Notes under the pieces: generated by a model
What the model was told of the DNA's origin: nothing
The model's database searches: none
The model's input: the letters and a program-made list of their open reading frames with translations, nothing else
Part shown: one piece after another, positions 289 through 36,601 of the stretch
How the letters are laid out: each line of letters starts with the position of its first letter
Numbering within the stretch: the stretch's first letter is position 1
Source of the DNA: Escherichia virus TH54
Strand: one strand, 5' to 3'
Sequence record: MT446420.1
Length of the DNA stretch: 64,000 bases
Made by a program: the position numbers and the translations under genes

Positions 289-467
289 AATTTAGGTCCT
301 TTTGCAACTGTATTGAACAAGCTACGGTCGCACACCATCAACGGAGCGTCTGGCCATTTCAAAGGACGATACCATACATCTTGGTCAGTCACTTTGGTTA
401 CTTGTACAGGATAACCATTTACAGAATAATAATGGTCAACTTTAATTTCTTTATCTTCAATAACCAT
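285..467 (-). CDS. hypothetical small protein (about 61 aa, start trimmed to ATG with GAGG RBS)
   Basis: ORF track 285..545; upstream extension overlaps promoter cassette. Confidence 0.5.
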   Translation of the reverse strand: MVIEDKEIKVDHYYSVNGYPVQVTKVTDQDVWYRPLKWPDAPLMVCDRSLFNTVAKGPKL

Positions 468-469
468 TT

Positions 470-530
470 TGTTTTCCTCATCAGTAGTTGATGGGATAAT
501 GATACACCGTTCAAAGGGGCTTGTACACCC
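470..530 (-). promoter_or_regulatory. early promoter-like cassette (TGTACA -35-like, -10, conserved leader CAACTACTGAGGA)
   Basis: member of repeated cassette family found upstream of many minus-strand genes. Confidence 0.45.
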
Positions 531-6828: not shown

Positions 6829-7817
6829 TTCAGCAGCTCCAGAGCTTGTTCCAGTTTATCCAGACGATTGGTTGATTCTTCCCAAAGTCGTTTGGCTTTT
6901 GTATAATCTTCAGTTGCCTTTTTATTAATAGCAAGAGCTTCATTATACGCCGTTTCCAGGGCAACAATTTCAGGCGCTTTTTGTTTCACTGGCTCATTAT
7001 TCAGATTATCAATCAGGTCTTCAAGGGTAGTAACTTCATGCGGAGCGTTCATAATTTCCTCACTTTTCTTTTTATAAATTTCTGCATCAGTTGGTTGTTT
7101 TGCACATTTAACTTCACGCAATGTCACCACAATTTTCCAACCTTTCCAACCATGAGCACTGGTGATAGGGTCTACTTTAATTTTTTCAACAGTGCGCATA
7201 TAATTAAGGGCACACTGTACCTGATGAGTAAGCGTACAGGCAACATCAAGATACTTTTTGACATTTTCTGGAGTAGCCACCGGCGTAAAGAACTCATGCT
7301 TAACTGTAATAATTACTTGGTTTTCACCAGACTCTTTAACCTTTATCATATGCTCAGCCAAATGGGAGATAGTGCGAAAATCACCACCCATCAATTTTGT
7401 CGCTGATTTTATGATAGACATTTTGTTATCTCTGAATTCACGAGCCCAGCAATTTGCGAATTCAGAAACAGTATAGCCTTGCTTATCAAGGTAGTATTTT
7501 TCAACATCACCAAACCAATGATATCCAATTGTACCTTTACCACGTCTGGATTCAACACCAAACTTATTAAGAAGGTCTTTATTAACCAGGTATGCCAGAA
7601 CTCGGGAACCTTTAAAAGTTTTCTTGATATCATCATTACCAGCACGACTCGCAATAGTCGCAATGTCTTTCTTGAAGCGACCAGATGCAACAATCGTCGA
7701 ATCAATCTGATTTAACCAGAAATTGATAATTGAAAGGATAGCCGATTCACCTATTAATGGTTTTACTTTTGCATCGATAGTGGTGTTAAAGGCCTGGATA
7801 TATTCGTTACGCGTCAT
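6825..7817 (-). CDS. hypothetical protein, 330 aa, C-terminal coiled coil
   Basis: ORF track; shares C-terminal tail with 7876..8781 and 9000..9845. Confidence 0.7.
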   Translation of the reverse strand: MTRNEYIQAFNTTIDAKVKPLIGESAILSIINFWLNQIDSTIVASGRFKKDIATIASRAGNDDIKKTFKGSRVLAYLVNKDLLNKFGVESRRGKGTIGYHWFGDVEKYYLDKQGYTVSEFANCWAREFRDNKMSIIKSATKLMGGDFRTISHLAEHMIKVKESGENQVIITVKHEFFTPVATPENVKKYLDVACTLTHQVQCALNYMRTVEKIKVDPITSAHGWKGWKIVVTLREVKCAKQPTDAEIYKKKSEEIMNAPHEVTTLEDLIDNLNNEPVKQKAPEIVALETAYNEALAINKKATEDYTKAKRLWEESTNRLDKLEQALELLK

Positions 7818-7875
7818 AGTGTTCTCCTCATAAAGTAGGAATTCATTATACTCCCTCCATCCTTGGAAGTAAACA

Positions 7876-9908: not shown

Positions 9909-10433
9909 TTATGCGAGAACCGTCTTTAAACGCTCTTCAAACTTCTGAAGGAGTGCCTGGCGCTCTGCTCTTTGTTTGGTATAGGTTTCAATACGCTCTG
10001 AAGTGAGATTGTATTGTTCATTAACTGATTCCCGCATGAATTCAGGAATCTCTTTACATGCTTTGATTTCATTGAACTTATCAAGCACCGCTTGTTGTTC
10101 AGCAATCAGACCATCATAATATTGGATATCTGATTTGATGTTTTGTACATCAGATTCAGTAGGCATATTTTTCTTTGCTCTTGATGCCTGATACTCAGCA
10201 TTAGTCTCTCTTGACCAGAACAAAGAGCGGTTTTTATTGGTGTTTTTATACACATCAACAATACCAACTGAATCAACAGTCACAATCCAGTTCCAGGCGT
10301 TTTTATAAGTTTGACCACCTGATACTGTAATCTCACCAGCACAAGCAACATCATTAAAGAACTTGCTTTGTGCTTCTGATTTAAAATTACCATTATTGTA
10401 ATTAATCAGATTAAAGATTGATTTGGCTTCCAT
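9909..10433 (-). CDS. hypothetical protein, 174 aa
   Basis: ORF track; preceded by conserved leader cassette. Confidence 0.65.
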   Translation of the reverse strand: MEAKSIFNLINYNNGNFKSEAQSKFFNDVACAGEITVSGGQTYKNAWNWIVTVDSVGIVDVYKNTNKNRSLFWSRETNAEYQASRAKKNMPTESDVQNIKSDIQYYDGLIAEQQAVLDKFNEIKACKEIPEFMRESVNEQYNLTSERIETYTKQRAERQALLQKFEERLKTVLA

Positions 10434-10435
10434 TT

Positions 10436-10500
10436 TATTCTCCAGTATTTGGTAACTCAGTATGGGAACATTATACGTCTATCCCCATACTATGTACACA
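10436..10500 (-). promoter_or_regulatory. early promoter/leader cassette (conserved CCATACTGAGTTACCAAATA ... GGAGAATAAAATG)
   Basis: repeated about 50-nt element. Confidence 0.5.
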
Positions 10501-10810: not shown

Positions 10811-11017
10811 TCACTTGCGACGACGTTTTGGTAATGGTTTAGGGAAGAACATTGCTTTACCTGCAGGGGTCAAAGTCACACGTAAAGCATTACCAATACC
10901 AAGGGATGCTTTAACCAGACCTTTGGCTTTTAACTCACCAAATGCTTGACGTTGTTCAGGGTCACGAGTGTTAACCATCAGACCTTTTTCACCAGCAGCT
11001 TTGATTAATTCTAACAT
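10811..11017 (-). CDS. hypothetical basic protein, 68 aa
   Basis: ORF track; conserved leader upstream. Confidence 0.55.
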   Translation of the reverse strand: MLELIKAAGEKGLMVNTRDPEQRQAFGELKAKGLVKASLGIGNALRVTLTPAGKAMFFPKPLPKRRRK

Positions 11018-11019
11018 TT

Positions 11020-11095
11020 TATTCTCCGTTTGTTTATTTGGTAACTCAGTATGGAATCATTATGCATCATGACCATCTGGTTGTACACATATACT
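11020..11095 (-). promoter_or_regulatory. early promoter/leader cassette
   Basis: same conserved element as 10436..10500. Confidence 0.5.
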
Positions 11096-11134
11096 AAATA
11101 AAAATACTTAATAAAACCATAAAGGAGAAAGTTT

Positions 11135-11881
11135 ATGATTTTATCCGGAAGAACTGTTGATGAACTCAATGAAAAAGTCCAGGCTGCCTTGGCTAATAAT
11201 TGGTATTTGTTTGGTTCGACTATGGTGTTGCCGAATACCCCTACGGATAGCAAAGAGCGTTTTTTCCAAACTATGTCCAGCTCGGAAACTCAGATACCGG
11301 GTCCACCTGGTCCCAAAGGAGAACCGGGTGTACCAGGACCAAAAGGAGACCCAGGTGGGGATGGAAAATCTTCTTATCAGATATGGCTTGACTTGGGAAA
11401 TACAGGAACTGTTGATGATTTTTTAACTGATACAGCAGGAAAGAGGGAAAAATCCGAGGTGTTTTGGAGTGGTATAAACGTTCTATTAACCAATGGTGTG
11501 ACTTCAAACATAATTAGTGTTTTAAAGGGGATTCCACCGACTGCAGGGACTCTATCTCCGTTTTTTAGAACCACTGATGATAAGTTGTGGCCATATAACC
11601 AAGACAGAAGCCTAATGTTTAAACTCAACCTTATTGGTAATTTTGCAGGAGCCTCGCAAGCTCGAAGTATAACATTAAATTTCGTTGGAACCAACGGAAA
11701 CACTTATATACAGAATCGTCCGGAAAATGCTACAGATATTTTGTCTTTTACAACGTTCTTTAGCATTGATAAAGATGGGGCAATGGCAACCAATGGTACA
11801 GCTATAACTGTTATGCCAAATGGCGGCAACTTTACAATAACCTCTGCATTGTTAGTAGCCGAACAAACAGTGACTTCATAA
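11135..11881 (+). CDS. collagen-like repeat protein (Gly-X-Y x8) with beta-rich C-terminal domain; opposite strand to flanking genes
   Basis: GPPGPKGEPGVPGPKGDPGGDG repeat; AGGAG RBS; terminator hairpin downstream. Confidence 0.7.
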   Translation: MILSGRTVDELNEKVQAALANNWYLFGSTMVLPNTPTDSKERFFQTMSSSETQIPGPPGPKGEPGVPGPKGDPGGDGKSSYQIWLDLGNTGTVDDFLTDTAGKREKSEVFWSGINVLLTNGVTSNIISVLKGIPPTAGTLSPFFRTTDDKLWPYNQDRSLMFKLNLIGNFAGASQARSITLNFVGTNGNTYIQNRPENATDILSFTTFFSIDKDGAMATNGTAITVMPNGGNFTITSALLVAEQTVTS

Positions 11882-11883
11882 AC

Positions 11884-11905
11884 AAAAAAGGGCCGTATGG
11901 CCCTT
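11884..11905 (-). terminator. bidirectional rho-independent terminator (GGGCC-GTAT-GGCCC flanked by A6/T-run)
   Basis: GC hairpin plus T-run on minus strand. Confidence 0.65.
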
Positions 11906-12146
11906 AGATTGCACTCCAAAAATTATGGAATCTTATAGTATTGATAGCCCAGTTAACAAACCTGCGAGTTTGCTTGGGAGTTGGTTTGCATATGTACTTG
12001 ATATTGACCCGACGACCAGTTTCACGACAGACTGCTTCGAGATACCAGCGGCGACCTTTATGAGGTCTTCCATACGATAAGAAGACCTTGATTTCCTGGT
12101 TATCGATAATAGGAATTGTGGTTGTCAAGATATACCTCCTCAACAA
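11904..12146 (-). CDS. hypothetical basic protein, 80 aa (may be spurious)
   Basis: ORF track. Confidence 0.3.
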   Translation of the reverse strand: MLRRYILTTTIPIIDNQEIKVFLSYGRPHKGRRWYLEAVCRETGRRVNIKYICKPTPKQTRRFVNWAINTIRFHNFWSAI

Positions 12147-15266: not shown

Positions 15267-15469
15267 TATTCCACCACATATGATAATGAGAAAATTGCTG
15301 ATGAAAGATGAGTAGCATCTTCTTCGCACAGTTCAAATGGAGCTTTCTGTAAGAGTTCAACAACTTCTTCATCAGTGGCACTGTCCATAAAGATTGCATA
15401 ATCATTAAGATAGATAACAACCTCATCACCAGTATTAACTGCATCAATCTTGATATTTTTAATTCTCAT
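15266..15469 (-). CDS. hypothetical acidic protein, 67 aa
   Basis: ORF track; promoter cassette upstream. Confidence 0.5.
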   Translation of the reverse strand: MRIKNIKIDAVNTGDEVVIYLNDYAIFMDSATDEEVVELLQKAPFELCEEDATHLSSAIFSLSYVVE

Positions 15470-15530
15470 TGTATTCTCCTCAGTAGTTGATGGGATAATA
15501 GTACACCCTTTTTATGAGGATGTAAACCCC
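15470..15530 (-). promoter_or_regulatory. early promoter-like cassette
   Basis: GTTTACAT -35-like plus conserved leader. Confidence 0.45.
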
Positions 15531-15537
15531 TAAATGA

Positions 15538-15566
15538 AAAAAGGTCCACCCGAAGGCAGACCTTTT
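15538..15566 (-). terminator. terminator-like hairpin flanked by A/T runs
   Basis: AAAAAGGTC...GACCTTTT. Confidence 0.45.
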
Positions 15567-18926: not shown

Positions 18927-19385
18927 TTAGATATAAATCACTTTTGTGCTAATTTTTCCTTCCAGACGATTAGAGTTAACAAACGCCATACGGCAACACA
19001 TGGTTGGAGACTTCCCAGGAATAGCGGGGTTAACTGTCATTCCTAACCATAGGTTCTTGTCCGTGATTTCCAGACGAAGTGGACGGTAGTTCACATTCGG
19101 GTCAATTTGTGCTTCAACTTCCGGGAGTGGTTTCATCTCCAAGAATTCAACGATTTCTTTTACATGTGGTGTGATTTTTCCAAACAAGTCAAAAACATAT
19201 TGTTCATCAATTTCACGCTGGATTGCACGGTCCAATAGGTGTGGACTGTACTTAATGAAGAATGCTTCAAGGCCTGCTTCTTTACAAGCCTTGTTGATAG
19301 CATTATTAATTTTGAGGAACTCCGTTTCAAAAATGCGACGAAGTTTATTGCGGCGAATGTAAACACTTGAATCGATAGTAGTCAT
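18927..19385 (-). CDS. regB: sequence-specific endoribonuclease RegB
   Basis: 152 aa; VYIRRNKLRR...HLLDRAIQREIDE matches remembered T4 RegB. Confidence 0.9.
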   Translation of the reverse strand: MTTIDSSVYIRRNKLRRIFETEFLKINNAINKACKEAGLEAFFIKYSPHLLDRAIQREIDEQYVFDLFGKITPHVKEIVEFLEMKPLPEVEAQIDPNVNYRPLRLEITDKNLWLGMTVNPAIPGKSPTMCCRMAFVNSNRLEGKISTKVIYI

Positions 19386-19441
19386 GATTATCTCCTTTTG
19401 TTTGATGGGATAATCATAACTCATTTCAATCTGCTTGTACA
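19386..19441 (-). promoter_or_regulatory. early promoter-like cassette upstream of regB
   Basis: GTGTACA...conserved leader. Confidence 0.45.
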
Positions 19442-20021
<580 letters not shown>

Positions 20022-21238: not shown

Positions 21239-21538
21239 TTAAAAAGAACCAGAGCCTTTAATTGTGTTCTGGCGACCTTTATTTTCTAATTCAGAATGGT
21301 CGATTTCGTATGCTTGTGCTACACCAAAGGCCTTTTTAACTTTAGCTAAAGAACCTTTAGATGTAACAATATTAAAAGTATTACCTTTAGTAAAATCAAC
21401 CAAATCCACTTGTACACCCTGTTTACCGAGGCTTGCTACAATAGCATCAACATATTGTTGGTCTAAATTACCCTGAACCCCAATTTGAAATGCTTTAGGA
21501 GCTTTGACTTCAGTAATAAATTCTTGATAAGTTTTCAT
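21239..21538 (-). CDS. internal-protein-like, capsid targeting sequence MKTYQEFITE
   Basis: T4 IP-type CTS at N-terminus. Confidence 0.8.
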   Translation of the reverse strand: MKTYQEFITEVKAPKAFQIGVQGNLDQQYVDAIVASLGKQGVQVDLVDFTKGNTFNIVTSKGSLAKVKKAFGVAQAYEIDHSELENKGRQNTIKGSGSF

Positions 21539-21594
21539 TTATTCGCTCCAAGTTGATAGGATAATTATACACTATCCCATCATAAAGTAAACAG
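21539..21594 (-). promoter_or_regulatory. early promoter-like cassette (GTTTAC, TATAAT inside palindrome)
   Basis: GTTTAC...GGGATAGTG-TATAAT-TATCCC. Confidence 0.5.
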
Positions 21595-21858
21595 TTATGC
21601 TTTACCGCCAGAAACAATACCAAAGGTCTCAAAGTCCCATTCAATATCGTCAACATCAACTTTCTTACCAGCAACCACGAATGCGATTTCGCGACGTTTT
21701 GCATAGGTGACAATTTCTTTACCATCACCACCAAAGAAAGAATAACCATTGCGCTTCATGGTGCCAAAGTCTTCAGCATCACCGGCGAAGGCGCGGACTT
21801 TAAAAGCACCGGTAGGAGCTTTAGCAGATTCAGTAATAAATTCTTGATAAGTTTTCAT
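21595..21858 (-). CDS. internal-protein-like, CTS MKTYQEFITE
   Basis: CTS; paralog of 34932..35231. Confidence 0.8.
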   Translation of the reverse strand: MKTYQEFITESAKAPTGAFKVRAFAGDAEDFGTMKRNGYSFFGGDGKEIVTYAKRREIAFVVAGKKVDVDDIEWDFETFGIVSGGKA

Positions 21859-21871
21859 AATGTCTCTTTAA

Positions 21872-22186
21872 TTACTCTTTAGGGAAATCACGCAAAAATG
21901 CATCATAAAGTTTATTACCAATGCGACGGAATGCTTTTGCCGCATGAACGTTATCCGGATTTGCAATTTTAATCTGCATTACATGACTACCAGCCCATGA
22001 TTTGGCTTCATCATAATAGCCTTTAATTTCTTTAATAGTCTTACGTTTTCCACCAGGGCCATCAACAGTAATTTTCCACGAACCCGTGCTCGTTTCACTT
22101 GGTGGGGTTAATTGTTCAATCCAGACATAACCACCTTCAACACGTTTTTGGGTAGATTCAGTAATAAATTCTTGATAAGTTTTCAT
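21872..22186 (-). CDS. internal-protein-like, CTS MKTYQEFITE (start trimmed)
   Basis: CTS. Confidence 0.75.
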   Translation of the reverse strand: MKTYQEFITESTQKRVEGGYVWIEQLTPPSETSTGSWKITVDGPGGKRKTIKEIKGYYDEAKSWAGSHVMQIKIANPDNVHAAKAFRRIGNKLYDAFLRDFPKE

Positions 22187-22234
22187 TTTATATTCCATTG
22201 TTTGGTTGATAAAATCATTATACAACCTTTTTAG

Positions 22235-22651
22235 TTAAGCGTACACAGCTTTCCCATAGTATTTGTACCAGGTAGGCTTTTGAGAAATTTTCTCATTCAG
22301 TCTGGCTTGACTGATTTCAATTGACCAGATTGATGGTTGATAATCATTTTTCCATTCATCAGGAATATCACTTAAATCTTGGGTAGAAATATCTTTTATG
22401 TTAAACCCTCGCTTTAAACATTCTGCAATAAGTTCTTGATGACGGTTTTTAAGGAACAAAAGTTTATCATAAAAGAAGGTAACATGACCAGTCCCTAAAA
22501 GAAAAGATGATGGGATTTTAAAGTCAGAAACCTTTTTACCATTTTGCACATGCTTACGAACAGCACCAAACACGCGAGGAAGTTCACGATATTCAGCCAT
22601 AAGATGTTGGTCAGCGAGTTCAGATACCAGGGTTAAATTAATGCGAGTCAT
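22235..22651 (-). CDS. denV: endonuclease V (pyrimidine dimer DNA glycosylase)
   Basis: 138 aa, near-identical to remembered T4 DenV. Confidence 0.95.
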
Positions 22652-22706
22652 GTTTGTTCTCCGTAGTTGATAGGGTCATTATAACCCTATCATTTGGAGA
22701 TGTACA
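22652..22706 (-). promoter_or_regulatory. early promoter-like cassette
   Basis: GTGTACA...ATAGGGT-TATAAT-GACCCTAT. Confidence 0.5.
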
Positions 22707-23195
22707 CTAATATGCGTCAAAAGTTCCGGTACGGAACGTTTCTATAACTCGTTTGGCTCGGTTCGGAGTCTGGACTTTATACCATCTCGAGTCGGCCAGT
22801 TCCTTAGCGGCGGCTTCCCACGATTTGGCCTTCAACAATCGCATACCCTTAGGAAAACCAGCTACCCCTGCAACACCCATCTGGAATACCATATTAATGA
22901 GTGCACAACGACGAACTTCATCCAGTACATCATAAACAGGTTTTAAGACAGGATGCCTCAAGATTCCGGCTTTAGCTTTTTCGACCGAACGGTTAAACAA
23001 TGTTTCAGCTTCGTGCTGGGTTATGCGACCATTGCAAACGCGACCCATGAGCTTATCGAGTTCGGCACGAGCAACATCTTTTGATGGGTTCTTAGTTATC
23101 AGTTGCCCGATACCAATGGTCCAATAGCCTTCAGTATCTTTATACAAATCCAACTTACAACCTTCATCTATGCGTAACATTTCGAATATATTCAT
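22707..23195 (-). CDS. e: endolysin (T4 lysozyme)
   Basis: [12 protein letters not shown]...[11 protein letters not shown] matches remembered T4 lysozyme. Confidence 0.96.
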
Positions 23196-24494: not shown

Positions 24495-25183
24495 TACCAG
24501 CCCTCCATGGGGAATTCCAGATATACTTGAGCATTAACGCGGATTTCATTGGTAACTTTATTAACACGGTCAGTTTTACGAGATACGCGACCAAACCAGC
24601 GCCAACCGTTACTAACTGTTTTTGTTCCAGTATGCCAGGTCTGCCAGTTGAATTCACATAATGTGCGGTCAGGAGCTTCTTGAACTAAAAGTTCACCCGC
24701 CTTGATTTTTTCCAGAACTTCCTGGTGCCACTGGCGATAGATAAGTTCGCCATCAGGAATCTGACTGAATTCTGCAGTTCCAAGAGCAAAATTAGTAGGG
24801 CAAACAGAAGCGTTAACCAGACCCAGGATGTGTTCAGAATGGTAACGAGGGTTATCATAATCAGGTTGTCCTGCTGTAATAAAATGTTGTCCTGCTGGAA
24901 TATCTGGTCGCGGTACGTCATCATGGTGATATCCAGGGATAGCAGGATACCAACCAGGCATTAACATGTGTACACGGGAATCAAATACAATATCAGGGCC
25001 ACATTGCCAATCTTCAGGCAGGTTTTCAATAAAGCTACGAGTAATAGGACCGCCATGCTTATGCGCAAATTCTGGATAGCAGTTAAAGAACATGGGCTCA
25101 TTTTTAATCATATCATTACTGATATCTTGAGCAAATTGACCAACTTCACGCATTTGACTATTAAAAGTTTTTGGACTGTTCAT
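24494..25183 (-). CDS. hypothetical protein, 229 aa
   Basis: ORF track. Confidence 0.65.
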   Translation of the reverse strand: MNSPKTFNSQMREVGQFAQDISNDMIKNEPMFFNCYPEFAHKHGGPITRSFIENLPEDWQCGPDIVFDSRVHMLMPGWYPAIPGYHHDDVPRPDIPAGQHFITAGQPDYDNPRYHSEHILGLVNASVCPTNFALGTAEFSQIPDGELIYRQWHQEVLEKIKAGELLVQEAPDRTLCEFNWQTWHTGTKTVSNGWRWFGRVSRKTDRVNKVTNEIRVNAQVYLEFPMEGW

Positions 25184-25242
25184 AATATTTTCCTCATTGA
25201 TTGTGGGACCATTGTGTCATGGTCCCACTTGGATGTACACAA

Positions 25243-26573: not shown

Positions 26574-26808
26574 TTAGCAGCTACTCGGATACCAGATTTT
26601 ACCATCGGCACGAGCAACGAAGGTACGACCAGCTTCTTCACCATAACAAGAGCTGTTCAACCAGTCTTCAAGACGGACTTCGCCGTCATAATCATCAAGC
26701 TCAACACCAAAATCTTGAGCAGAAGCCATATCTTTTACTTTCTTATACAGTGCAGCCAGTTCAAGGGCAGCTTTTTCTAATTCAGCATGTTCAACAGCAG
26801 TAGTCATT
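26574..26808 (-). CDS. small protein, W-x-SS-C tail family member A (ends KIWYPSSC)
   Basis: tandem paralog; start trimmed. Confidence 0.55.
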
Positions 26809-26817
26809 TTTATTTCC

Positions 26818-27045
26818 TTAGCAAGACATAGAGGAGTTAAACCAGAAACCTTTACCATCTGGGATACCATAATCACCGCGAATCCAGTCATACTCTTCGT
26901 ATTCTGGACAACCCGCAGGAATATATCGTTGAAGACTGTCAGCATACACATGAAAGTATTCACCAGTTTTATCGGCCAGTTGTTCACCTTCACAGATTAG
27001 TGCACGGATTTGGTCTTCAATTTCTTTAACAGTTTTAGCAGTCAT
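26818..27045 (-). CDS. small protein, family member B (ends FWFNSSMSC)
   Basis: tandem paralog. Confidence 0.6.
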   Translation of the reverse strand: MTAKTVKEIEDQIRALICEGEQLADKTGEYFHVYADSLQRYIPAGCPEYEEYDWIRGDYGIPDGKGFWFNSSMSC

Positions 27046-27054
27046 TTTATTTCC

Positions 27055-27252
27055 TTAGCATTCGTAAGAGGAGGACACCCAGGAGCCACCCGTAATTGTA
27101 ATACAGCCATTGTAAATCGTGATATGACGGTCCAGATGGTTTTCACCTTCGATATAGATGTCGGCTTCTTCACGTTCTTCTTTACAAATCTGGATAACGT
27201 TTTCAATAGCTGCCGCGGCAGTACGGATTGCACAATCTAATTCACGAGACAT
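27055..27252 (-). CDS. small protein, family member C (ends GSWVSSSYEC)
   Basis: tandem paralog. Confidence 0.6.
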   Translation of the reverse strand: MSRELDCAIRTAAAAIENVIQICKEEREEADIYIEGENHLDRHITIYNGCITITGGSWVSSSYEC

Positions 27253-27261
27253 AATAATTCC

Positions 27262-27543
27262 TTAACATTCAACAGAAGAGGACACCCAACCACCATTTTC
27301 CAGGTCAGTTGTATAGTCATGAGTATTAACAATAGCCCATTCAGGATGACCATGTTCTTCCCAATGAGCAAGGTCGGCTTTCAAGGCGCCAGGAGAATAA
27401 TAGTCACCGCCCATACCGCGAGCAGGGTATATATTAAAATGAGTCTCATATTTGTCTGCAATTTCCTCGGCACGACGAATAGCTTTATGGATATCATTTA
27501 CTGCGGCCAGAAGCTCTGGTTGGTTATGGTTATCATTCATCAT
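27262..27543 (-). CDS. small protein, family member D (ends GGWVSSSVEC)
   Basis: tandem paralog; start trimmed. Confidence 0.6.
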   Translation of the reverse strand: MMNDNHNQPELLAAVNDIHKAIRRAEEIADKYETHFNIYPARGMGGDYYSPGALKADLAHWEEHGHPEWAIVNTHDYTTDLENGGWVSSSVEC

Positions 27544-29104: not shown

Positions 29105-29698
29105 TTACTTAAGCGAATTGATATATTCTTCAATGTCAGCGGATGTGGTATCCACACCAACCTGTGGGCCTTTGAAGGTTTCAACACGCATCAGAGTGTC
29201 TTCAATATCAATCTTAGTCAATGCAGCGATTTCAACAACATCATCTGCAGTCGCAATACCTAGGGCAGATACTTTACGGGTTTCGCGGATGTATTCCAGT
29301 TTAACAGCTAGTTCCTGACGAGAGTCATCTAGCTCTTTAACTTTCAATTTAATTTCATTACGCATTTCAACATAATCATCTGCCTTCTTACGAAGTTGTT
29401 TAGCAGTGCGACGATACAGGAGACCCAGTTTAGCATGGACCTGGACATCTGCACCATCAGCAATCAGTTTGCGGATTTCACGCTCTTTTGAAGCGGCGAG
29501 TTGGTCTTTTTCATTCGCTAACTCGCGGATGCGTTTTTCTTCATTAACAGACTTAACGTGGGCAGTCTGGAGCTCAGTAATCTTGTCAATCAGGGTAGAA
29601 GCCGCTTGAGTATATTGGTCTTCAATAGACAGGTTTTTTGCCATTGCAGTACCCAGTTTGGAGCGGATGAATTCAACAAGTTTCTTTAAAGTATTCAT
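29105..29698 (-). CDS. coiled-coil protein, 197 aa
   Basis: long heptad-rich helices. Confidence 0.6.
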
Positions 29699-29773
29699 GG
29701 TATTTCCTTCAGTTGGTTAATGTTTTATTATCCAGGGAACATACTATCATGTTCCCAGAGGTTTGTAAACATT

Positions 29774-30172
29774 TTATTTCATTTTTGCGAGGCAGATTTC
29801 ATTGGCTTCCCATTGAGCTTGCTTAATAATAGCTTTGGATACAGGAACCTTTTGACCATAAGTTTTTGACGTTGAGAGAACAATATATTTGTTTGCCTCA
29901 TTATGCCAACCCCATGATTTTTCGCCATGAGTACCTTTAACAACAGCTGACACCTCAACAGAACAACCATCAGCGCCAATCTTGGTATCAACAATCCATT
30001 CATTTCGCTTAATTGCTGCTTCCAATGTTGCTGCTTCCGCCATCCAGTGCGTTTCAGGGTCTATTTGTTCAATCTCACGAGTTAACGCAACTCCCAGGTC
30101 TTTTGCATATTTTTGTTGTTCAGGAGTTAATGAATCATATAACTTCTTCATTTCTTTATCTTCAATATTCAT
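29774..30172 (-). CDS. hypothetical protein, about 132 aa
   Basis: ORF track trimmed; GGA RBS. Confidence 0.55.
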   Translation of the reverse strand: MNIEDKEMKKLYDSLTPEQQKYAKDLGVALTREIEQIDPETHWMAEAATLEAAIKRNEWIVDTKIGADGCSVEVSAVVKGTHGEKSWGWHNEANKYIVLSTSKTYGQKVPVSKAIIKQAQWEANEICLAKMK

Positions 30173-30206
30173 AATATTTTCCTCAAGGGGCTTTCGCCCC
30201 AATCAT

Positions 30207-30512
30207 TTAGATTTTGTTTTCCTGTACACCATAATAAAGCTCATCAGACACAATATCCAGGATGCGGCGAACATATTCATCATGGTATTGACAGTCAAAA
30301 TCAAATGCAACAGTAGTTTCCGCTTCACGAGTGAATTTAACTTGCACATTCAGGTGATTAACAACGTTAGTTAATTTATCAGTAAAGAACTCTTTTGCTA
30401 CCGCCTGTTGGACTTGCACTTTGAACTTGGTGTTACGAATCATATTTTCAGCAGATGCGAAATTACCAGTTTTATCAAAGTCAACAAGCGCCAGGTTGAT
30501 GATGAATTTCAT
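30207..30512 (-). CDS. hypothetical protein, 101 aa
   Basis: conserved leader upstream. Confidence 0.6.
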   Translation of the reverse strand: MKFIINLALVDFDKTGNFASAENMIRNTKFKVQVQQAVAKEFFTDKLTNVVNHLNVQVKFTREAETTVAFDFDCQYHDEYVRRILDIVSDELYYGVQENKI

Positions 30513-30570
30513 TTTATTCTCCAGTGTTTTATTTGGTAACTCAGTATGGAATCATTATGCCTTAAAGCAG
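30513..30570 (-). promoter_or_regulatory. early promoter/leader cassette
   Basis: conserved element. Confidence 0.5.
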
Positions 30571-30594
30571 GGGGCTTGTATACCCCCTTTTTAA

Positions 30595-31026
30595 TTAAAT
30601 TTCAAATTCTTTGCGGAAGTTGGAAGCATAAGACTGAACTGATGCTTTGTTGAATCCAAACTCACGCACAATCATATCAATAACAGCTCTACGAGCAGCA
30701 CCATTAGACATATTGACAGTTTTGAACATATCATAGCATAAATCTTTGTTGCTCATGCCGGAGCGTTTAGGTGCCTTACGTTCAGCTTTAGGAGTAGGTT
30801 TAACTTCTGGTTTAACCTGTCCATCATTCAGACCTTTAAAAATTTTACCTGCCAGCGTTGCCAGTTTAGCAGCTTCGCCACGAGTGATACCAAATACTGC
30901 CGGGTTAAATGAAATACCTTCAGCTGTCAGACGTTTGAAGAACATACGTGCTGCGGATTGTGCTTCAGCTTCAGAAGAGTTGTTTAATGCCAGTTTAATG
31001 TACTTAACCAGTTTTGAAGTTTTCAT
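30595..31026 (-). CDS. hypothetical protein, 143 aa, C-terminal domain shared with 31479..31904
   Basis: shared ...AARRA.ID..V......QSYASNFRK. Confidence 0.65.
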   Translation of the reverse strand: MKTSKLVKYIKLALNNSSEAEAQSAARMFFKRLTAEGISFNPAVFGITRGEAAKLATLAGKIFKGLNDGQVKPEVKPTPKAERKAPKRSGMSNKDLCYDMFKTVNMSNGAARRAVIDMIVREFGFNKASVQSYASNFRKEFEI

Positions 31027-31099
31027 TTTATTATCCCGTTTGTTTATTTGTTAACTCAGTATGGAATCATTATGTCTTAGTTAAATTCCAAAGTACACA
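31027..31099 (-). promoter_or_regulatory. early promoter/leader cassette
   Basis: conserved element. Confidence 0.5.
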
Positions 31100-31396
31100 T
31101 TAATTTTCAGAAGTTGGGAAATAAACTTCAAAGTCATACATGTTTACTACCGCAGACGCGATTGCCTGGTACTGCATACCTAAGAAAGTTTTCTTATTCT
31201 TGCGCCACAAGTTAACCATTTCTGTTTTGATGCATGCCAGGGAATAGTTGGATGCAGGATACTGTTTGATGATTGCAACAACTTCTTCAGAAGCAGTTTC
31301 ACACAATTCATTCAGTTGAGCTTCAATTTTAGCAGAAATGATTGCTTTGTTTTCTTCTTGAGCTTGGGTAGCGTGCCATGCAGGTGCGTTAAACAT
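31100..31396 (-). CDS. hypothetical protein, 98 aa
   Basis: conserved leader upstream. Confidence 0.6.
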   Translation of the reverse strand: MFNAPAWHATQAQEENKAIISAKIEAQLNELCETASEEVVAIIKQYPASNYSLACIKTEMVNLWRKNKKTFLGMQYQAIASAVVNMYDFEVYFPTSEN

Positions 31397-31478
31397 TTTA
31401 TTCTCCAGTGTTTTATTTGTTAACTCAGTATGGGATAATTATACAATATCCCACCTGGAAGTAAAACACTTTTCTCAA
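31397..31478 (-). promoter_or_regulatory. early promoter/leader cassette (TATAAT in GGGATA/TATCCC palindrome)
   Basis: conserved element. Confidence 0.5.
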
Positions 31479-31904
31479 TTATTTTTGAGCTTTGCGGAAG
31501 TTGGAAGCATAAGACTGAACAACAGTCTTTTTGATATCATGGGTGGTAACCAGAACATCAATCAGAGCGCGTCGAGCTGCATTATCATTCATATCAATTT
31601 CTGCAAATGCCTGGAAGCAAATGTCACGGGCGTTACCCGATTTGGACCGGATTTTTTCTTCTTTAACTTCTTCAATTGGGAATTCAATCATTTCAGCTTG
31701 GATTAATTCAATGATAGATTCTTTTGACTGTTTGGTGTTTACCTTCAGTTCAGAATTAAGGGACTTGGCGATGGCAACAATCTGGGTTGAAGTCAGATGA
31801 ATAAGTGCATCTTCACGAATGCAGATTTCACATACTTCGTCAGCAACCATTTTGTTGGTGATGCGGGTAACAGAGAATGCAGAGGTCAGGGTCAGAAAGT
31901 TCAT
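31479..31904 (-). CDS. hypothetical protein, about 141 aa, paralog of 30595..31026
   Basis: start trimmed to ATG after conserved leader. Confidence 0.65.
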   Translation of the reverse strand: MNFLTLTSAFSVTRITNKMVADEVCEICIREDALIHLTSTQIVAIAKSLNSELKVNTKQSKESIIELIQAEMIEFPIEEVKEEKIRSKSGNARDICFQAFAEIDMNDNAARRALIDVLVTTHDIKKTVVQSYASNFRKAQK

Positions 31905-31985
31905 TTTATTTCTCCAAAGTTTTGTTTGATTCAGTGTGTAACTCAGTATGGAATCATTATGCACCCGGTCAATTCGGATGTACAC
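31905..31985 (-). promoter_or_regulatory. early promoter/leader cassette
   Basis: conserved element. Confidence 0.5.
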
Positions 31986-32032
31986 TACTTTTTGAAGAAA
32001 ATTTCAAATTTATTCGGGGTATAAAAAAGCCC

Positions 32033-32060
32033 CAACCTTTCGGGAGGGGCTATACCTTGT
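32033..32060 (-). terminator. rho-independent terminator (GC hairpin plus T6 on minus strand)
   Basis: GCCCC...GGGGC followed by TTTTTT. Confidence 0.65.
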
Positions 32061-32088
32061 CGGGGTTCCACCTGCAAGGCAAGTGTTC

Positions 32089-32472
32089 TTATCCGCGAGC
32101 GAATGCCATTGCAGCGCGTTCGTTGGCACGGTCGGTGATGTTCAAGAATTTATCACGAGCGATTTCGATTGGAGCGCCAACCCAGTCAGCAGCACCATTA
32201 CCCGGAGACTGTTTAGGACGGACCATATAAGTCGAAACTTTGGAACCGGCTAGTTTGGCACCTGGTGCCGCGGCATTTTTAACGTCTTTGGCTTTGATGC
32301 CAAATCCAGTTACGATACCCCAAGAAACGCCATTAACTGGTTTCTTGAACATAACACGGTCACCAATTGAAACACCAGCTTTTTCTGGAGCCACTAAAGA
32401 AAATTTACCAGCTTCAGTCAGTACGGATTCGGTGATGGTATTGCGATTTAAAAATTCTGCATATGTAAGCAT
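32089..32472 (-). CDS. hypothetical protein, 127 aa, possibly late-expressed
   Basis: TATAAATA 31 nt upstream. Confidence 0.65.
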   Translation of the reverse strand: MLTYAEFLNRNTITESVLTEAGKFSLVAPEKAGVSIGDRVMFKKPVNGVSWGIVTGFGIKAKDVKNAAAPGAKLAGSKVSTYMVRPKQSPGNGAADWVGAPIEIARDKFLNITDRANERAAMAFARG

Positions 32473-32503
32473 TTTGTTTTTCCATTATTAGGGTTGTTGT
32501 TAA

Positions 32504-32511
32504 TATTTATA
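32504..32511 (-). promoter_or_regulatory. late promoter TATAAATA
   Basis: exact T4 late -10 consensus, appropriate spacing. Confidence 0.5.
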
Positions 32512-32520
32512 TTCCATAGT

Positions 32521-32580
32521 ACCGGATGCACCATCCGCTCGGATTTCTCATACTACCGGACGCACCGTCCGCTCTGGAAA
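32521..32580 (-). repeat. two tandem hairpin-forming repeats (CGGAYG-GTG-CRTCCG)
   Basis: two perfect 6-bp-stem hairpins in about 29-nt direct repeats. Confidence 0.6.
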
Positions 32581-32711
32581 AAACTCCGTTAAAAGGATGC
32601 GCCGTTTCAGCTGTGATATAAGGGGACATCAACAAATCGTAAAGATTTATTAATGCCAGTCCTTAAACAGGGAACATCAGTCCGACGACTTACCGGTAGC
32701 GACCCGGTTTC

Positions 32712-32951
32712 TCATTCAATTGTAATAGCTAATTTGACTTTAACAACCTTATAATTGGAATCAAGGTCATTGAATTCCATAAAATTTGTTGCTAATCTGC
32801 GAGTCGGGAAACTTAGATATTTATTATGCTCAGGTGGAGCAGTTAATGCAAACCATGGGACTTGTTTATCATTTTCATCAAACTCATCAAAGCTATAAAC
32901 CAGCTCGTTGTTGGTTATATCCATAACTGCATATGATTCACTAATAACCAT
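32712..32951 (-). CDS. hypothetical acidic protein, about 79 aa
   Basis: start trimmed to avoid tRNA; GAGG RBS. Confidence 0.5.
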   Translation of the reverse strand: MVISESYAVMDITNNELVYSFDEFDENDKQVPWFALTAPPEHNKYLSFPTRRLATNFMEFNDLDSNYKVVKVKLAITIE

Positions 32952-32966
32952 AATATCCTCAGTAAT

Positions 32967-33043
32967 TGGTCGGGGTGGTGGGATTCTAACCCACAACCTA
33001 CGGTTTAGAAGACCGTTGCTCTATACAATTGAGCTACACCCCG
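32967..33043 (-). tRNA. tRNA-Arg (anticodon TCT), CCA encoded
   Basis: hand-folded cloverleaf: acceptor CGGGGTG/CACCCCG, D-stem GCTC/GAGC, anticodon loop CTTCTAA, T-stem GTGGG/CCCAC. Confidence 0.8.
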
Positions 33044-33045
33044 GG

Positions 33046-33119
33046 TGGCCCCATCCGGACTTGAACCGGAAACCTGCCAGTTATGAGCCGGATGCTCTAA
33101 CCAATTGAGCTACAGGGCC
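33046..33119 (-). tRNA. tRNA with anticodon CAT (Met or Ile2)
   Basis: hand-folded cloverleaf: acceptor GGCCCTG, D-stem GCTC/GAGC, anticodon loop CTCATAA, T-arm TCCGG-TTCAAGT-CCGGA. Confidence 0.75.
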
Positions 33120-33124
33120 TAAAA

Positions 33125-33394
33125 TTAAATTACAAATCCAGCGGGAGCATTATCATCTTTAACCATATGCTGAATTGTATGATAAGTCATTTCTTCTGGT
33201 GCAACCAGATAAGCCGCCGTATTAACCAACGGGATTAATTTGACTTTATTGAATGTTGAACAACCAATTGACATAAAGGTTTCGCCTGTTGGATGCTGAA
33301 TTTCGCCAAATTGACACTCATACGAAATAGAGCAACGTTTGGTAGTGGTTGTCTTTGTTTTAGGGTCGTAAAAAGCTAATTTTAATACTAACAT
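33125..33394 (-). CDS. hypothetical protein, 89 aa
   Basis: ORF track. Confidence 0.5.
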   Translation of the reverse strand: MLVLKLAFYDPKTKTTTTKRCSISYECQFGEIQHPTGETFMSIGCSTFNKVKLIPLVNTAAYLVAPEEMTYHTIQHMVKDDNAPAGFVI

Positions 33395-33514
33395 AATACC
33401 TCAAGTAAAATTAAGTAAAGTAAGTTTGATTAATAGCACATGCTATTATGAAAGGTTCTTTGAGGGAAGAACCTTTGGTAATAGAGGGTACTTATTAATA
33501 ATAACGCGTTTTTA

Positions 33515-34378: not shown

Positions 34379-34564
34379 TTACTCACCTTTGGAGATTTTA
34401 TCCATAACAAAAGAGATTGAACCAATTAAAAATGCAACTACTAAAGAGATTATATTCTCAGAAGTTGAAAGCATATTCAACATAAAGCCAGCAAACATGC
34501 TAAAACCAAAAGCGGTAACAGCAACAAGGGCAGTAACATTTCTAATTAATTCGCAACGTTTCAT
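34379..34564 (-). CDS. small membrane protein, 61 aa
   Basis: two TM helices; promoter cassette upstream. Confidence 0.5.
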   Translation of the reverse strand: MKRCELIRNVTALVAVTAFGFSMFAGFMLNMLSTSENIISLVVAFLIGSISFVMDKISKGE

Positions 34565-34621
34565 TTTATTCTCCTCAGTAGTTGATGGGATAATTATACG
34601 CTATCCCATTCAAATGTACAC
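34565..34621 (-). promoter_or_regulatory. early promoter-like cassette (ATGGGATAGCG-TATAAT-TATCCCAT)
   Basis: conserved element. Confidence 0.5.
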
Positions 34622-34876
34622 TTATTTTTTAGGGATACGATAGTAACGCATCTCAACATCTTTCTGCTTGTGCCACTTTTTGATAAGGTCTTCAGAACCT
34701 TTAATGGTAACGATGTCATAGCGACCATCATGCGATACTTCAGCACTTAACTGCATGAAGTTGTCTAATGAACGGCGGAATTCTTCATTAGAAAAACTGC
34801 CACGCGGGGAACCAACATAAGCAAACTCAACTTTTGCATCTGCGGCTTCGTTAATAAATTCTTGATAAGTTTTCAT
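34622..34876 (-). CDS. internal-protein-like, CTS MKTYQEFINE
   Basis: CTS. Confidence 0.8.
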   Translation of the reverse strand: MKTYQEFINEAADAKVEFAYVGSPRGSFSNEEFRRSLDNFMQLSAEVSHDGRYDIVTIKGSEDLIKKWHKQKDVEMRYYRIPKK

Positions 34877-34931
34877 TAGTAGCTCCAGTAGTTGATGGGA
34901 TAATTATACTGCAACTATCCCATCGCGTACA
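34877..34931 (-). promoter_or_regulatory. early promoter-like cassette
   Basis: conserved element. Confidence 0.45.
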
Positions 34932-35231
34932 TTACATTTTTGAACCACGAATTACACCATAAGCGGCGAAGTCGTCAGAAATATCTTTAGGAGAGTTCTT
35001 ACCAGTTTCAATGAAGGCAATGCTTGACTTCTGACTAAAAGAGGTAATTTTGTTATAGTTGGAGTCAAGGAAGGTATAACCATTTTTACGCAGCTGGTCA
35101 AAGTCTTCAGCGTCGCCTTTACCTTTGAAGTCAACCCATTTGTAGGTGTTTTTCTTCTGAAGGCCCAGAGGCCAGGTTTTTGCTTCTGCCAGGTAATTGT
35201 TTTCTACCAAAAATTCATGAAAAGTTTGCAT
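34932..35231 (-). CDS. internal-protein-like, CTS MQTFHEFLVE; paralog of 21595..21858
   Basis: CTS; shared GDAEDF...NGY.F motif. Confidence 0.75.
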   Translation of the reverse strand: MQTFHEFLVENNYLAEAKTWPLGLQKKNTYKWVDFKGKGDAEDFDQLRKNGYTFLDSNYNKITSFSQKSSIAFIETGKNSPKDISDDFAAYGVIRGSKM

Positions 35232-35520: not shown

Positions 35521-35853
35521 TTATTTATAAAGTTTTGCCAGTTCTTTACGTCCGCGAGCAGACATAATAAATTGTTCATCGCCAATTTTAAAATAAGCCA
35601 TACCGCCGTCAACAGCGATACCAATTTCTTTAGTACCTTCTTTGCCTTTCCACTTGCCACCAGATTTCAGGACAGCTTCAACTGCAGCTTTGGAATATTT
35701 GGACGTTTGAAAACGTTCATTACCAATCTGAAAGAAAACACCATCTGCATTTTTGGTTAAACCAAATTTCAGAGAGCCTTCACTATCATCAATTGATTTG
35801 GTCTCATTGATGGCGGATTCGGCTAAAAACTCGTTGTAAGTCTTGATGTTCAT
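35521..35853 (-). CDS. internal-protein-like, CTS MNIKTYNEFLAE
   Basis: CTS; start trimmed. Confidence 0.75.
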   Translation of the reverse strand: MNIKTYNEFLAESAINETKSIDDSEGSLKFGLTKNADGVFFQIGNERFQTSKYSKAAVEAVLKSGGKWKGKEGTKEIGIAVDGGMAYFKIGDEQFIMSARGRKELAKLYK

Positions 35854-35913
35854 TTTAACTCCGTTTGTTCGTTGGTGTAGGAACATAATACTGCACCTAC
35901 ACTCATTTGTACA

Positions 35914-36601
<688 letters not shown>

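Follow-up and report, generated by a model that had tools for sequence, protein, structure and literature searches.

Repeated copies of one regulatory element precede early genes in a 64,000-nucleotide stretch of Escherichia virus TH54 (sequence record MT446420.1; hereafter the window), and we conclude, with a probability of roughly 85%, that they are T4-type early-gene expression cassettes of the kind described as promoter-early stem-loop (PeSL) cassettes. On the minus strand between 30300 and 32200, four near-identical elements each run to the ATG of a small open reading frame (ORF). An nhmmer profile built from 13 cassette copies finds 17 copies that are strong (E <= 1e-5) and one that is weak. 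They all lie within 1-36 kb on the minus strand, and every one of them (18/18) terminates with the Shine-Dalgarno (SD) sequence and start codon of its downstream gene. The same profile gave no match in the late-gene half of the window.

By sequence comparison, the source of the stretch is a T4-like coliphage that belongs to Gaprivervirus, a genus of the Tevenvirinae (Straboviridae). Over positions 29500-33500 its identity to Escherichia phage P896 is 97.6%, and VR20, SP18, MN01 and further members of the genus match there too. The annotation of VR20 and SP18, together with comparison to T4, marks 1-37 kb as the counter-clockwise early region, which runs from 55.2 through nrdC, tk, regB, denV, e and the tRNA genes to ipI/57B. 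All early-region genes are on the minus strand and are followed by late baseplate genes on the plus strand. The stretch 30513-31985, which holds the four elements, lies between e.6 and the tRNA genes and corresponds to a known hyperplastic region.

Anatomy and distribution of the cassettes

Each cassette consists, in order, of an AT-rich upstream stretch, a -35, a -10, an unstructured leader, an SD and an ATG. All 18 copies have a predicted sigma70-type early promoter sequence (a GT[GT]TAC-like -35, 16-17 nt and a TATAAT-like -10), the typical form being GTGTACA or GTTTACA, a spacing of 16-17 nt, and TATAAT or CATAAT. An initial model-made reading of the window from its letters alone (the sequence-only reading) had listed 13 of the genes; all 13 copies are real, each with a GT[GT]TACA-like -35, 16-17 nt, TATAAT or CATAAT and one of two leaders, but it had missed five, at starts 7817, 22186, 25183, 29698 and 35853. 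The GTGTACA that it gave as the -35 is typical but not universal, since GTATACA, GTGTACT and TTTTACT also occur.

The copies fall into two families by leader, ATACTGAGTTACCAAATAAA in six copies (family A) and otherwise ATCAACTAC. As the sequence-only reading had proposed, one conserved element precedes the genes starting at 10433, 11017, 30512, 31026, 31396 and 31904: the family A core CCATACTGAGTTA occurs exactly six times in the window, always on the minus strand and upstream of these starts. When up to two mismatches are allowed it matches nine times against 1.4 expected, a number reached in none of 100 shuffles. The second variant that had been described holds equally well, with a TATCCCATCAAC-type leader (family B) before all seven of its genes, at 467, 15469, 19385, 21538, 22651, 34564 and 34876. 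The cassettes, together with a neighbouring terminator and the regB gene discussed below, are as follows.

30510-30583, minus strand: cassette of ORF 30207-30512; -35 GTATACA within a GGGGG/CCCCC stem, CATAAT, family A leader, GGAGAATAAAATG
31024-31098, minus strand: cassette of ORF 30595-31026; GTGTACT, TGGAAT/ATTCCA stem around CATAAT, family A leader, GGGATAATAAAATG
31394-31466, minus strand: cassette of ORF 31100-31396; TGGGATA/TATCCCA stem around TATAAT, family A leader, GGAGAATAAAATG
31902-31985, minus strand: cassette of ORF 31479-31904; GTGTACA-17-CATAAT, longer family A leader, GGAGAAATAAAATG
32023-32050, minus strand: intrinsic terminator GCCCC...GGGGC-TTTTTT with 3' end GGGCTTTTTTATA; the 31985 promoter follows about 35 nt downstream
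10431-10499, minus strand: family A cassette of the nrdC.8 homologue; AGTATGGG/CCCATACT stem around TATAAT, GGAGAATAAAATG
11015-11088, minus strand: family A cassette of ORF 10811-11017; GGAGAATAAAATG; indel breakpoint of relatives at the first base of the -35
465-528, minus strand: family B cassette of the 55.2 homologue; -35 within an AAAGGGG/CCCCTTT stem
7815-7874, minus strand: cassette of the nrdC.5 homologue, newly found; no clear stem
15467-15562, minus strand: family B cassette of the gene starting at 15469; canonical terminator 15537-15562 directly upstream of the -35
19383-19442, minus strand: family B cassette of regB, orthologous to the T4 regB early promoter; no stem
18927-19385, minus strand: regB endoribonuclease gene (Pfam PF10715, E 2e-72)
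21536-21592, minus strand: family B cassette of an internal-protein-type gene; GGGATA/TATCCT stem with one G-U pair
22184-22246, minus strand: cassette of the internal-protein-type gene starting at 22186, newly found
22649-22707, minus strand: family B cassette of denV; 9-bp stem TGATAGGGT/ACCCTATCA around TATAAT; insertions of 285-366 nt inside it in relatives
25181-25240, minus strand: cassette of the gene starting at 25183, newly found; 10-bp stem GTGGGACCAT/ATGGTCCCAC around the -10
29696-29770, minus strand: weak-scoring cassette of e.6; GTTTACA-17-TAGTAT, 8-bp stem GGGAACAT/ATGTTCCC; indel breakpoint between -35 and stem
34562-34621, minus strand: family B cassette of trna.4; ATGGGATA/TATCCCAT stem; leader ATCAACTACTGAGGAGAATAAAATG identical to that of T4
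34874-34932, minus strand: family B cassette of an internal-protein-type gene; 9-bp stem GATGGGATA/TATCCCATC
35851-35914, minus strand: cassette of the internal-protein-type gene starting at 35853, newly found; GTGTAGG/CCTACAC stem

The family A copies are alike only in the -35 heptamer and in the segment from the -10 to the ATG, where mean identity is 84%; the flanks and the first 60 nt of coding sequence give a baseline of about 55%. Upstream of the -35, the AT content over 20 nt is 73% versus 61% for the region (0 of 20000 resamples were as high), and this AT-rich stretch frequently holds the stop codon of the gene above. The predicted transcription start, at the usual 7-nt distance from the -10, is an A. 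From there, the predicted family A transcript would start AUACUGAGUUACCAAAUAAA and run to GGAGAAUAAAAUG, with a leader of 30-45 nt, and the family B transcript would start AUCAACUACUGAGGAG and run to the AUG, with a leader of about 20 nt. Folded from this point, the leaders are predicted to be nearly structure-free, with a minimum free energy (MFE) between 0 and -3.8 kcal/mol and mostly positive z scores.

This pattern bears on whether the repeats are merely what is left of tandem gene duplication, paralogous genes having been copied with their upstream regions. Four cassettes do stand in tandem, and ORFs 30595-31026 and 31479-31904 have a common C-terminal domain of about 70 amino acids. But the similarity does not reach past the ATG on one side or the -35 on the other; copies are found 20 kb from each other and before conserved T4 genes (nrdC.8, regB, denV, trna.4); and, apart from those two ORFs, the proteins downstream of the cassettes belong to different PHROG families of unknown function. 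Because the homology is confined to the cassette and the downstream proteins are unrelated bar one pair, we reject a duplication origin, to which we would give almost no credence.

Besides RegB, nine downstream proteins were scanned, with no Pfam match and no annotated PHROG function, although some cassettes do sit before conserved genes such as regB and denV. In the two related minus-strand ORFs, the common domain (..AARRAxID...SVQSYASNFRK) follows unrelated N-terminal halves; phrog_18416 and phrog_9997 cross-match for them, and one related genome annotates a Rho_N-type domain there. An Rfam scan of the whole window returned two tRNAs only, and no known RNA family at the cassettes. These tRNA genes, at 32970-33119, are Arg and Met by the annotation of relatives; the T4 locus has eight tRNAs and two small RNAs, and SP18 has a third tRNA (Asn).

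Several cassettes are orthologous to T4 elements. The window profile matches T4 before regB, trna.4, ipI, denV, e.8, nrdC.5, nrdC.8 and nrdC.10, and the regB, trna.4, denV, nrdC.5 and nrdC.8 cassettes align with the T4 matches at the same genes. The leader ATCAACTACTGAGGAGAATAAAATG of trna.4 is identical in the two phages, and in the T4 copies, too, the -10 is enclosed by inverted repeats. The early promoters of T4 are of the UP/-35/TGn/-10 type; they are very strong and possess further consensus regions (PMC2988021). Among the orthologous promoters here, early status was confirmed from the literature for that of T4 regB. The GenBank and RefSeq records of T4 carry no promoter features, which made annotated T4 promoters unusable as a check, and literature searches yielded no usable dataset of T4 transcription start sites and no description of promoters in the VR7/JS98 group. 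The family A leader is absent from the 35-kb T4 stretch examined. It occurs 9-13 times per Gaprivervirus genome and elsewhere as one to three weak matches per genome, which in Morganella phage MP1 are annotated as putative promoters. At the trna.4 promoter the -35 is GTGTACA in Gapriverviruses and GTTTACA in T4 and other relatives, a lineage-wide one-base shift of the -35 consensus.

The 3' end of the cassette is also a candidate nuclease site. The sequence-only reading had pointed out that the GGAG of the SD is the cleavage motif of RegB and that regB lies in the window. This can be put more sharply: GGAGAATAAAA occurs five times against 0.27 expected, each time as a cassette SD (genes 10433, 11017, 30512, 31396 and 34564). 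The RegB/S1 target is an 11-nt GGAGRAYARAA in the early translation initiation region, it must be single-stranded, and the efficient, optimal T4 site is GGAGAAUAAAA (PMC1702504). Five leaders, all predicted to be unstructured, hold exactly GGAGAAUAAAA as SD plus spacer. Judged by this consensus, the conserved 3' end of the cassette is an optimal RegB/S1 site, and more than a mere GGAG. As for the GGAG itself, gene 31026 has GGGATAATAAAATG in its place (site sequence GGGAUAAUAAA); the leader of gene 31904 is longer. The regB gene has its own cassette, as in T4. Consensus and the presence of regB together suggest that the cassette leaders are cleaved by RegB.

We propose that the cassette would be an autonomous unit of five parts: a UP-like AT stretch, a strong early promoter of the sigma70 type, a stem-loop, a leader, and an SD with its spacer. 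Host RNA polymerase would fire at all cassettes right after infection, and each small gene would be translated from its own short leader, A/U-rich and unstructured, beginning at the A 7 nt past the -10. The SD and spacer would double as a good ribosome site and an optimal target of the phage's own RegB/S1 nuclease; minutes later, RegB would cut at GG^AG in the leaders and the messages would be switched off. One unit of about 50 nt would in this way join early promoter, ribosome site and optimal RegB switch-off site.

Inverted repeats at the promoter

A perfect stem of at least 6 bp surrounds the -10 in 10 of the 18 copies. When 44 nt with the -10 at the centre are taken from each copy, stems of at least 7 bp are found in eight, compared with 4% of random 44-nt windows. 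The mean MFE of the copies is -10.8 kcal/mol, whereas random windows give -5.75 and shuffles -4.7; the observed mean was reached in 0 of 20000 resamples. There are seven different arm pairs around the -10: TGGGATA/TATCCCA, GTGTAGG/CCTACAC, TGGAAT/ATTCCA, AGTATGGG/CCCATACT, TGATAGGGT/ACCCTATCA, GTGGGACCAT/ATGGTCCCAC and GGGAACAT/ATGTTCCC. Elsewhere the structure is displaced. Two copies (promoter starts 528 and 30583) have a G/C stem around the -35, and in two more a canonical terminator (15537-15562 or 32023-32050) stands just upstream, so that the stem-loop of the proposed unit would take any of three positions. The GGGGG/CCCCC stem at 30569-30588, at the -35 of cassette 30583, can also be read, on the plus strand, as a canonical intrinsic terminator, followed by TTTTAATTAA, and could stop antisense transcription.

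The sequence-only reading had claimed that the arms change in a compensatory manner and had named covariation analysis of all copies as the check. Because the stems lie in different registers, column-wise covariation over all stem-bearing copies is impossible, and we used a partner-swap permutation and a same-geometry subset instead. With spacer and downstream arm in their own pairing, the mean stem is 6.0 bp, as opposed to 4.48 +/- 0.29 bp with swapped partners, and 0 of 20000 permutations reached 6.0 bp. We also compared the trna.4 promoter of T4 with that taken from 21 viral contigs. At the same place these orthologues have five different arm pairs, namely ATGGGATA/TATCCCAT, ATAGGGTA/TACCCTAT, GGGCT/AGCCC, AGGGTTAT/ATAACCCT and CCACA/TGTGG, the last located in the spacer. 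In the same-geometry subset of nine copies, all 72 cells pair (slid controls, 29-56%) and three of eight pairs are changed on both sides; this subset was selected for showing a stem, so the 100% pairing is partly built in and its informative part is the compensatory swaps between orthologues. Compensatory change around the -10 is therefore upheld, by permutation among the copies of the window and by the double changes among orthologues: complementarity, not sequence, is what these stems conserve.

The last point disposes of a further idea, in which a dimeric repressor of early promoters, from phage or host, would bind the dyad symmetry as its operator. The -10 does lie at the centre of the symmetry, the classic place for a repressor to bind. 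But the window has at least seven unrelated arm sequences, and a single orthologous promoter has five. One protein cannot read all these variants, and because it is complementarity that is conserved we reject a sequence-specific operator as very hard to believe.

The 3' arm ends at about +2 of the predicted transcript, implying that the cassette's own transcript lacks the hairpin; this leaves DNA, or RNA read through from the gene above, as the only places where it can form. The inverted repeat might then work as DNA, either as a cruciform, which endonuclease VII would cut or a recombination protein would bind and which would make the cassette a recombination hot spot, or by altering promoter melting or early-promoter shut-off. 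We think this unlikely. In its favour, the arms lie upstream of the predicted start; the PeSL authors speculated on a DNA-binding protein (PMC2839356); an indel breakpoint lies at the 5' edge of the e.6 stem; and the mechanism of T4 early-promoter shut-off is unresolved in the literature. However, the stems are short (6-10 bp) and AT-rich, poor material for cruciform extrusion, and crossovers fall mostly in the leader and not in the stem. The mismatches, moreover, are G-U on the sense strand (G-T as DNA) and would be A-C on the other, and 11 of 12 window hairpins fold better as sense than as antisense strand, compared with 58% of structured random windows (p = 0.014). The strand bias and the G-U mismatches lean towards a role in RNA, without settling the question; a hairpin in read-through RNA or DNA would most likely be an attenuator or a 3'-end barrier that insulates neighbouring modules.

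Some observations weigh against the cassette interpretation as we have drawn it. Four copies (7874, 11088, 19442 and 22246) have no convincing stem, and none was found at the five most distant trna.4 loci. The stems around the -10 lack a U-tract and so are not canonical terminators. The mean difference in energy between sense and antisense folds is marginal (p = 0.09). Finally, promoter activity, the position of the start and RegB cleavage are deduced from orthology and consensus.

Gain and loss of genes at cassettes in relatives

Six relatives were aligned to positions 1-37.5 kb of the window, giving 35 distinct indel or replacement events. ORF 31100-31396 is absent from TH55, phage 212, SP18 and ECML-359, and at the junction 31073|31394 these phages have a single cassette that is chimeric, its promoter half being that of the 31396 cassette and its SD half that of 31026. 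In TH55, 212 and SP18 the point of crossover is within CCATACTGAGTTA..AAATAAA; in ECML-359 it is further 3', at AATAAAATG. The two different crossover points imply two independent events.

Other events touch the cassettes in different ways. In MN01, VR20, TH55 and ECML-359, a 555-bp ORF lies between the terminator 32023-32050 and the 31985 promoter, as a module flanked by a direct repeat of the terminator's 3' end, GGGCTTTTTTATA. ORF 29774-30172 is absent from four relatives, the breakpoint falling in the e.6 promoter, after its -35 and before its stem. Where the window has GTTTACA (29740-29775), relatives without this ORF have a MotA-box-like GTGCTTTAA, of the middle-promoter type, so the predicted class of the e.6 promoter changes with the indel. 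Repeat overlap also marks junctions at cassettes 21538, 34564 and 34876; cassettes 22651 and 25183 contain insertions, and an insertion of 1 kb has one end precisely at the -35 of cassette 11088. Cassette junctions take up about 22 of 70 breakpoint ends in about 4% of the DNA, including events at 11063 and 11087 that were first classed as inside coding sequence through a spurious ORF call (11011-11253).

That cassettes serve as sites of crossover is thus demonstrated, although a preference for them over other gene boundaries was not seen in this small sample. We suggest that the homologous recombination system of the phage would use them as crossover points because they are the only repeats of 30-50 bp in the region; a gene and one cassette could then be deleted or inserted with the neighbours undisturbed.

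A different account is that the cassettes are purely expression signals, alike through selection for strong early transcription and translation, and that recombination at them is incidental, any short repeat serving as well, with no dedicated shuffling element. We hold this to be a real if minority possibility, and it differs from the cassette interpretation in emphasis only. The breakpoint statistics speak for it and count against our reading: breakpoints occur at 9 of 18 cassette boundaries (10-11 after correction by hand) versus 27 of 76 others (Fisher p ~0.3; six comparisons), which is no significant enrichment, and some indels used unrelated short repeats, a 13-nt one at terminator ends and a 25-nt one at 26823|27036. 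In addition, no recombinase is associated with the cassettes, and family B leaders are conserved at orthologous T4 positions, which fits vertical inheritance. Against it, at least five junctions have their overlap homology exactly in cassettes, one of which was hit twice independently. Moreover, family A stands before unrelated genes at 9-13 sites per genome in one genus only, implying that this leader has spread or been homogenised. The sequence-only reading had likened the elements to cassettes proposed to drive modular gene shuffling; the chimeric junction at ORF 31100-31396 bears out the shuffling, but as breakpoint enrichment is not significant "drive" is too strong a word.

A bolder version of the cassette interpretation would make the hairpin around the -10 a selected RNA structure of read-through transcripts and no generic terminator. 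It would mark module boundaries, for instance as a 3'-exonuclease barrier a short way upstream of the RegB cut, so that when one cistron's leader is cleaved the message above keeps a hairpin at its end. The Gaprivervirus-specific family A leader would, in addition, spread as a 5' untranslated region by gene conversion between unrelated genes, so that the cassette becomes a self-propagating unit and more than signals conserved in place. We regard this combination as rather improbable.

Three further observations concern indels and inserts. At 26574-27543, four small genes lie 9-10 nt apart, and a deletion in ECML-359 (26823|27036) has a 25-nt overlap, from which it follows that a short repeat outside the cassettes mediates indels there. 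At 21538-22186 and 34847-34942, indels of internal-protein-type genes also cross over in the 5' coding sequence ATGAAAACTTATCAAGAATTTATT, the capsid-targeting leader; where this is common to the genes it extends the cassette repeat into the coding region, with overlaps of 32-96 nt.

The third is at 11089-12099. Here ORF 11135-11881 (plus strand, 248 amino acids), antisense to the early genes, encodes a protein with an Sf6-type tail needle knob domain (PF16532, E 3e-32; phrog_1030) and a collagen-like Gly-X-Y run. The ORF is part of an insert of about 1 kb, one edge of which falls exactly at the first -35 base of cassette 11088 and the other at a hairpin GGGCC-ATAC-GGCCC followed by a T-run. 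The insert is absent from P896 and VR20, occurs at full length in only eight phage records, and looks like a reverse-oriented 'moron' in the early region.

Comparison with known cassettes and promoters

PeSL cassettes have been described in RB49 and phi1 (Arbiol et al. 2010, PMC2839356) and in PST/T4 and nt-1/KVP40 (Comeau et al. 2014, PMC4122927). They comprise an AT-rich stretch, a sigma70-type early promoter, a variable stem-loop that may overlap the -10, an SD and an ATG, and they stand before ORFans in hyperplastic regions (PMC2839356, PMC4122927). As the sequence-only reading had sensed, the window copies fit this description: they have the same parts in the same arrangement, with stem-loops that overlap the -10 or the -35, they precede ORFans in hyperplastic regions, and a chimeric cassette stands where a close relative lacks the gene. 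The subclasses of Arbiol et al. are differing positions of the stem-loop (PMC2839356), over which the window copies spread likewise, and the RB49 ORF192 of those authors has the topology of the junction at ORF 31100-31396.

There are differences as well. The -35 in the window is of the T4 type, in its lineage-specific form GTGTACA, whereas that of RB49 is a near-perfect TTGACA, and most window stems are AT-rich and not GGGG/CCCC. The window conserves the whole 5' untranslated region as two leader families, with homology mainly from the -10 to the ATG, and its crossovers fall in the leader, whereas the proposal for RB49 places them in the AT-rich upstream part. The PeSL description also includes promoter and terminator or attenuator activity in reporters and detectable excised mini-circles; the window cassettes are known from sequence.

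The internal protein (IP) loci of the T-even phages come close too. In so far as they are summarised in PMC2839356, these loci have conserved 5' regions (Repoila et al. 1994), and the early promoters that precede their shuffled IP genes are of the T4 type, their stem-loops being weaker, AT-rich and variable in size. The IP-type genes of the window (21538, 22186, 34876 and 35853) have cassettes and repeat-mediated indels in the same manner, but here cassettes also precede nrdC.8, regB, denV, trna.4, e.6 and a run of ORFans. With T4 early promoters and RegB sites (Hinton 2010, PMC2988021; Durand et al. 2006, PMC1702504; Uzan and Miller 2010, PMC3014915) the window copies have in common their orthologous positions, several near-identical copies and the GGAGAAUAAAA of five leaders; they differ in their GTGTACA, against the GTTTACA of T4, and in a family A leader that is multi-copy only in Gaprivervirus. 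Each unit is a single gene with its own expression signals, as in integron cassettes and lambdoid 'morons', to which the PeSL authors compared theirs (PMC2839356). Unlike those, the units here have no integrase or attC-type site, the genes are sense-oriented, and it is general homologous recombination, acting between copies of regulatory DNA, that exchanges them.

Our literature search found no description of PeSL-type cassettes in Gaprivervirus. The window adds a well-populated example from this genus, with base-level evidence for the gain or loss of a single gene inside a common leader, twice independently. For annotation it supplies 18 probable early transcription units, and for phage engineering it offers natural 'landing pads' for gene swaps. 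Current understanding of T4-type phages is unchanged by the finding: overall, the window cassettes are an instance of a described class, early promoter cassettes of the PeSL and IP-locus type joined to a known RegB/S1 target.

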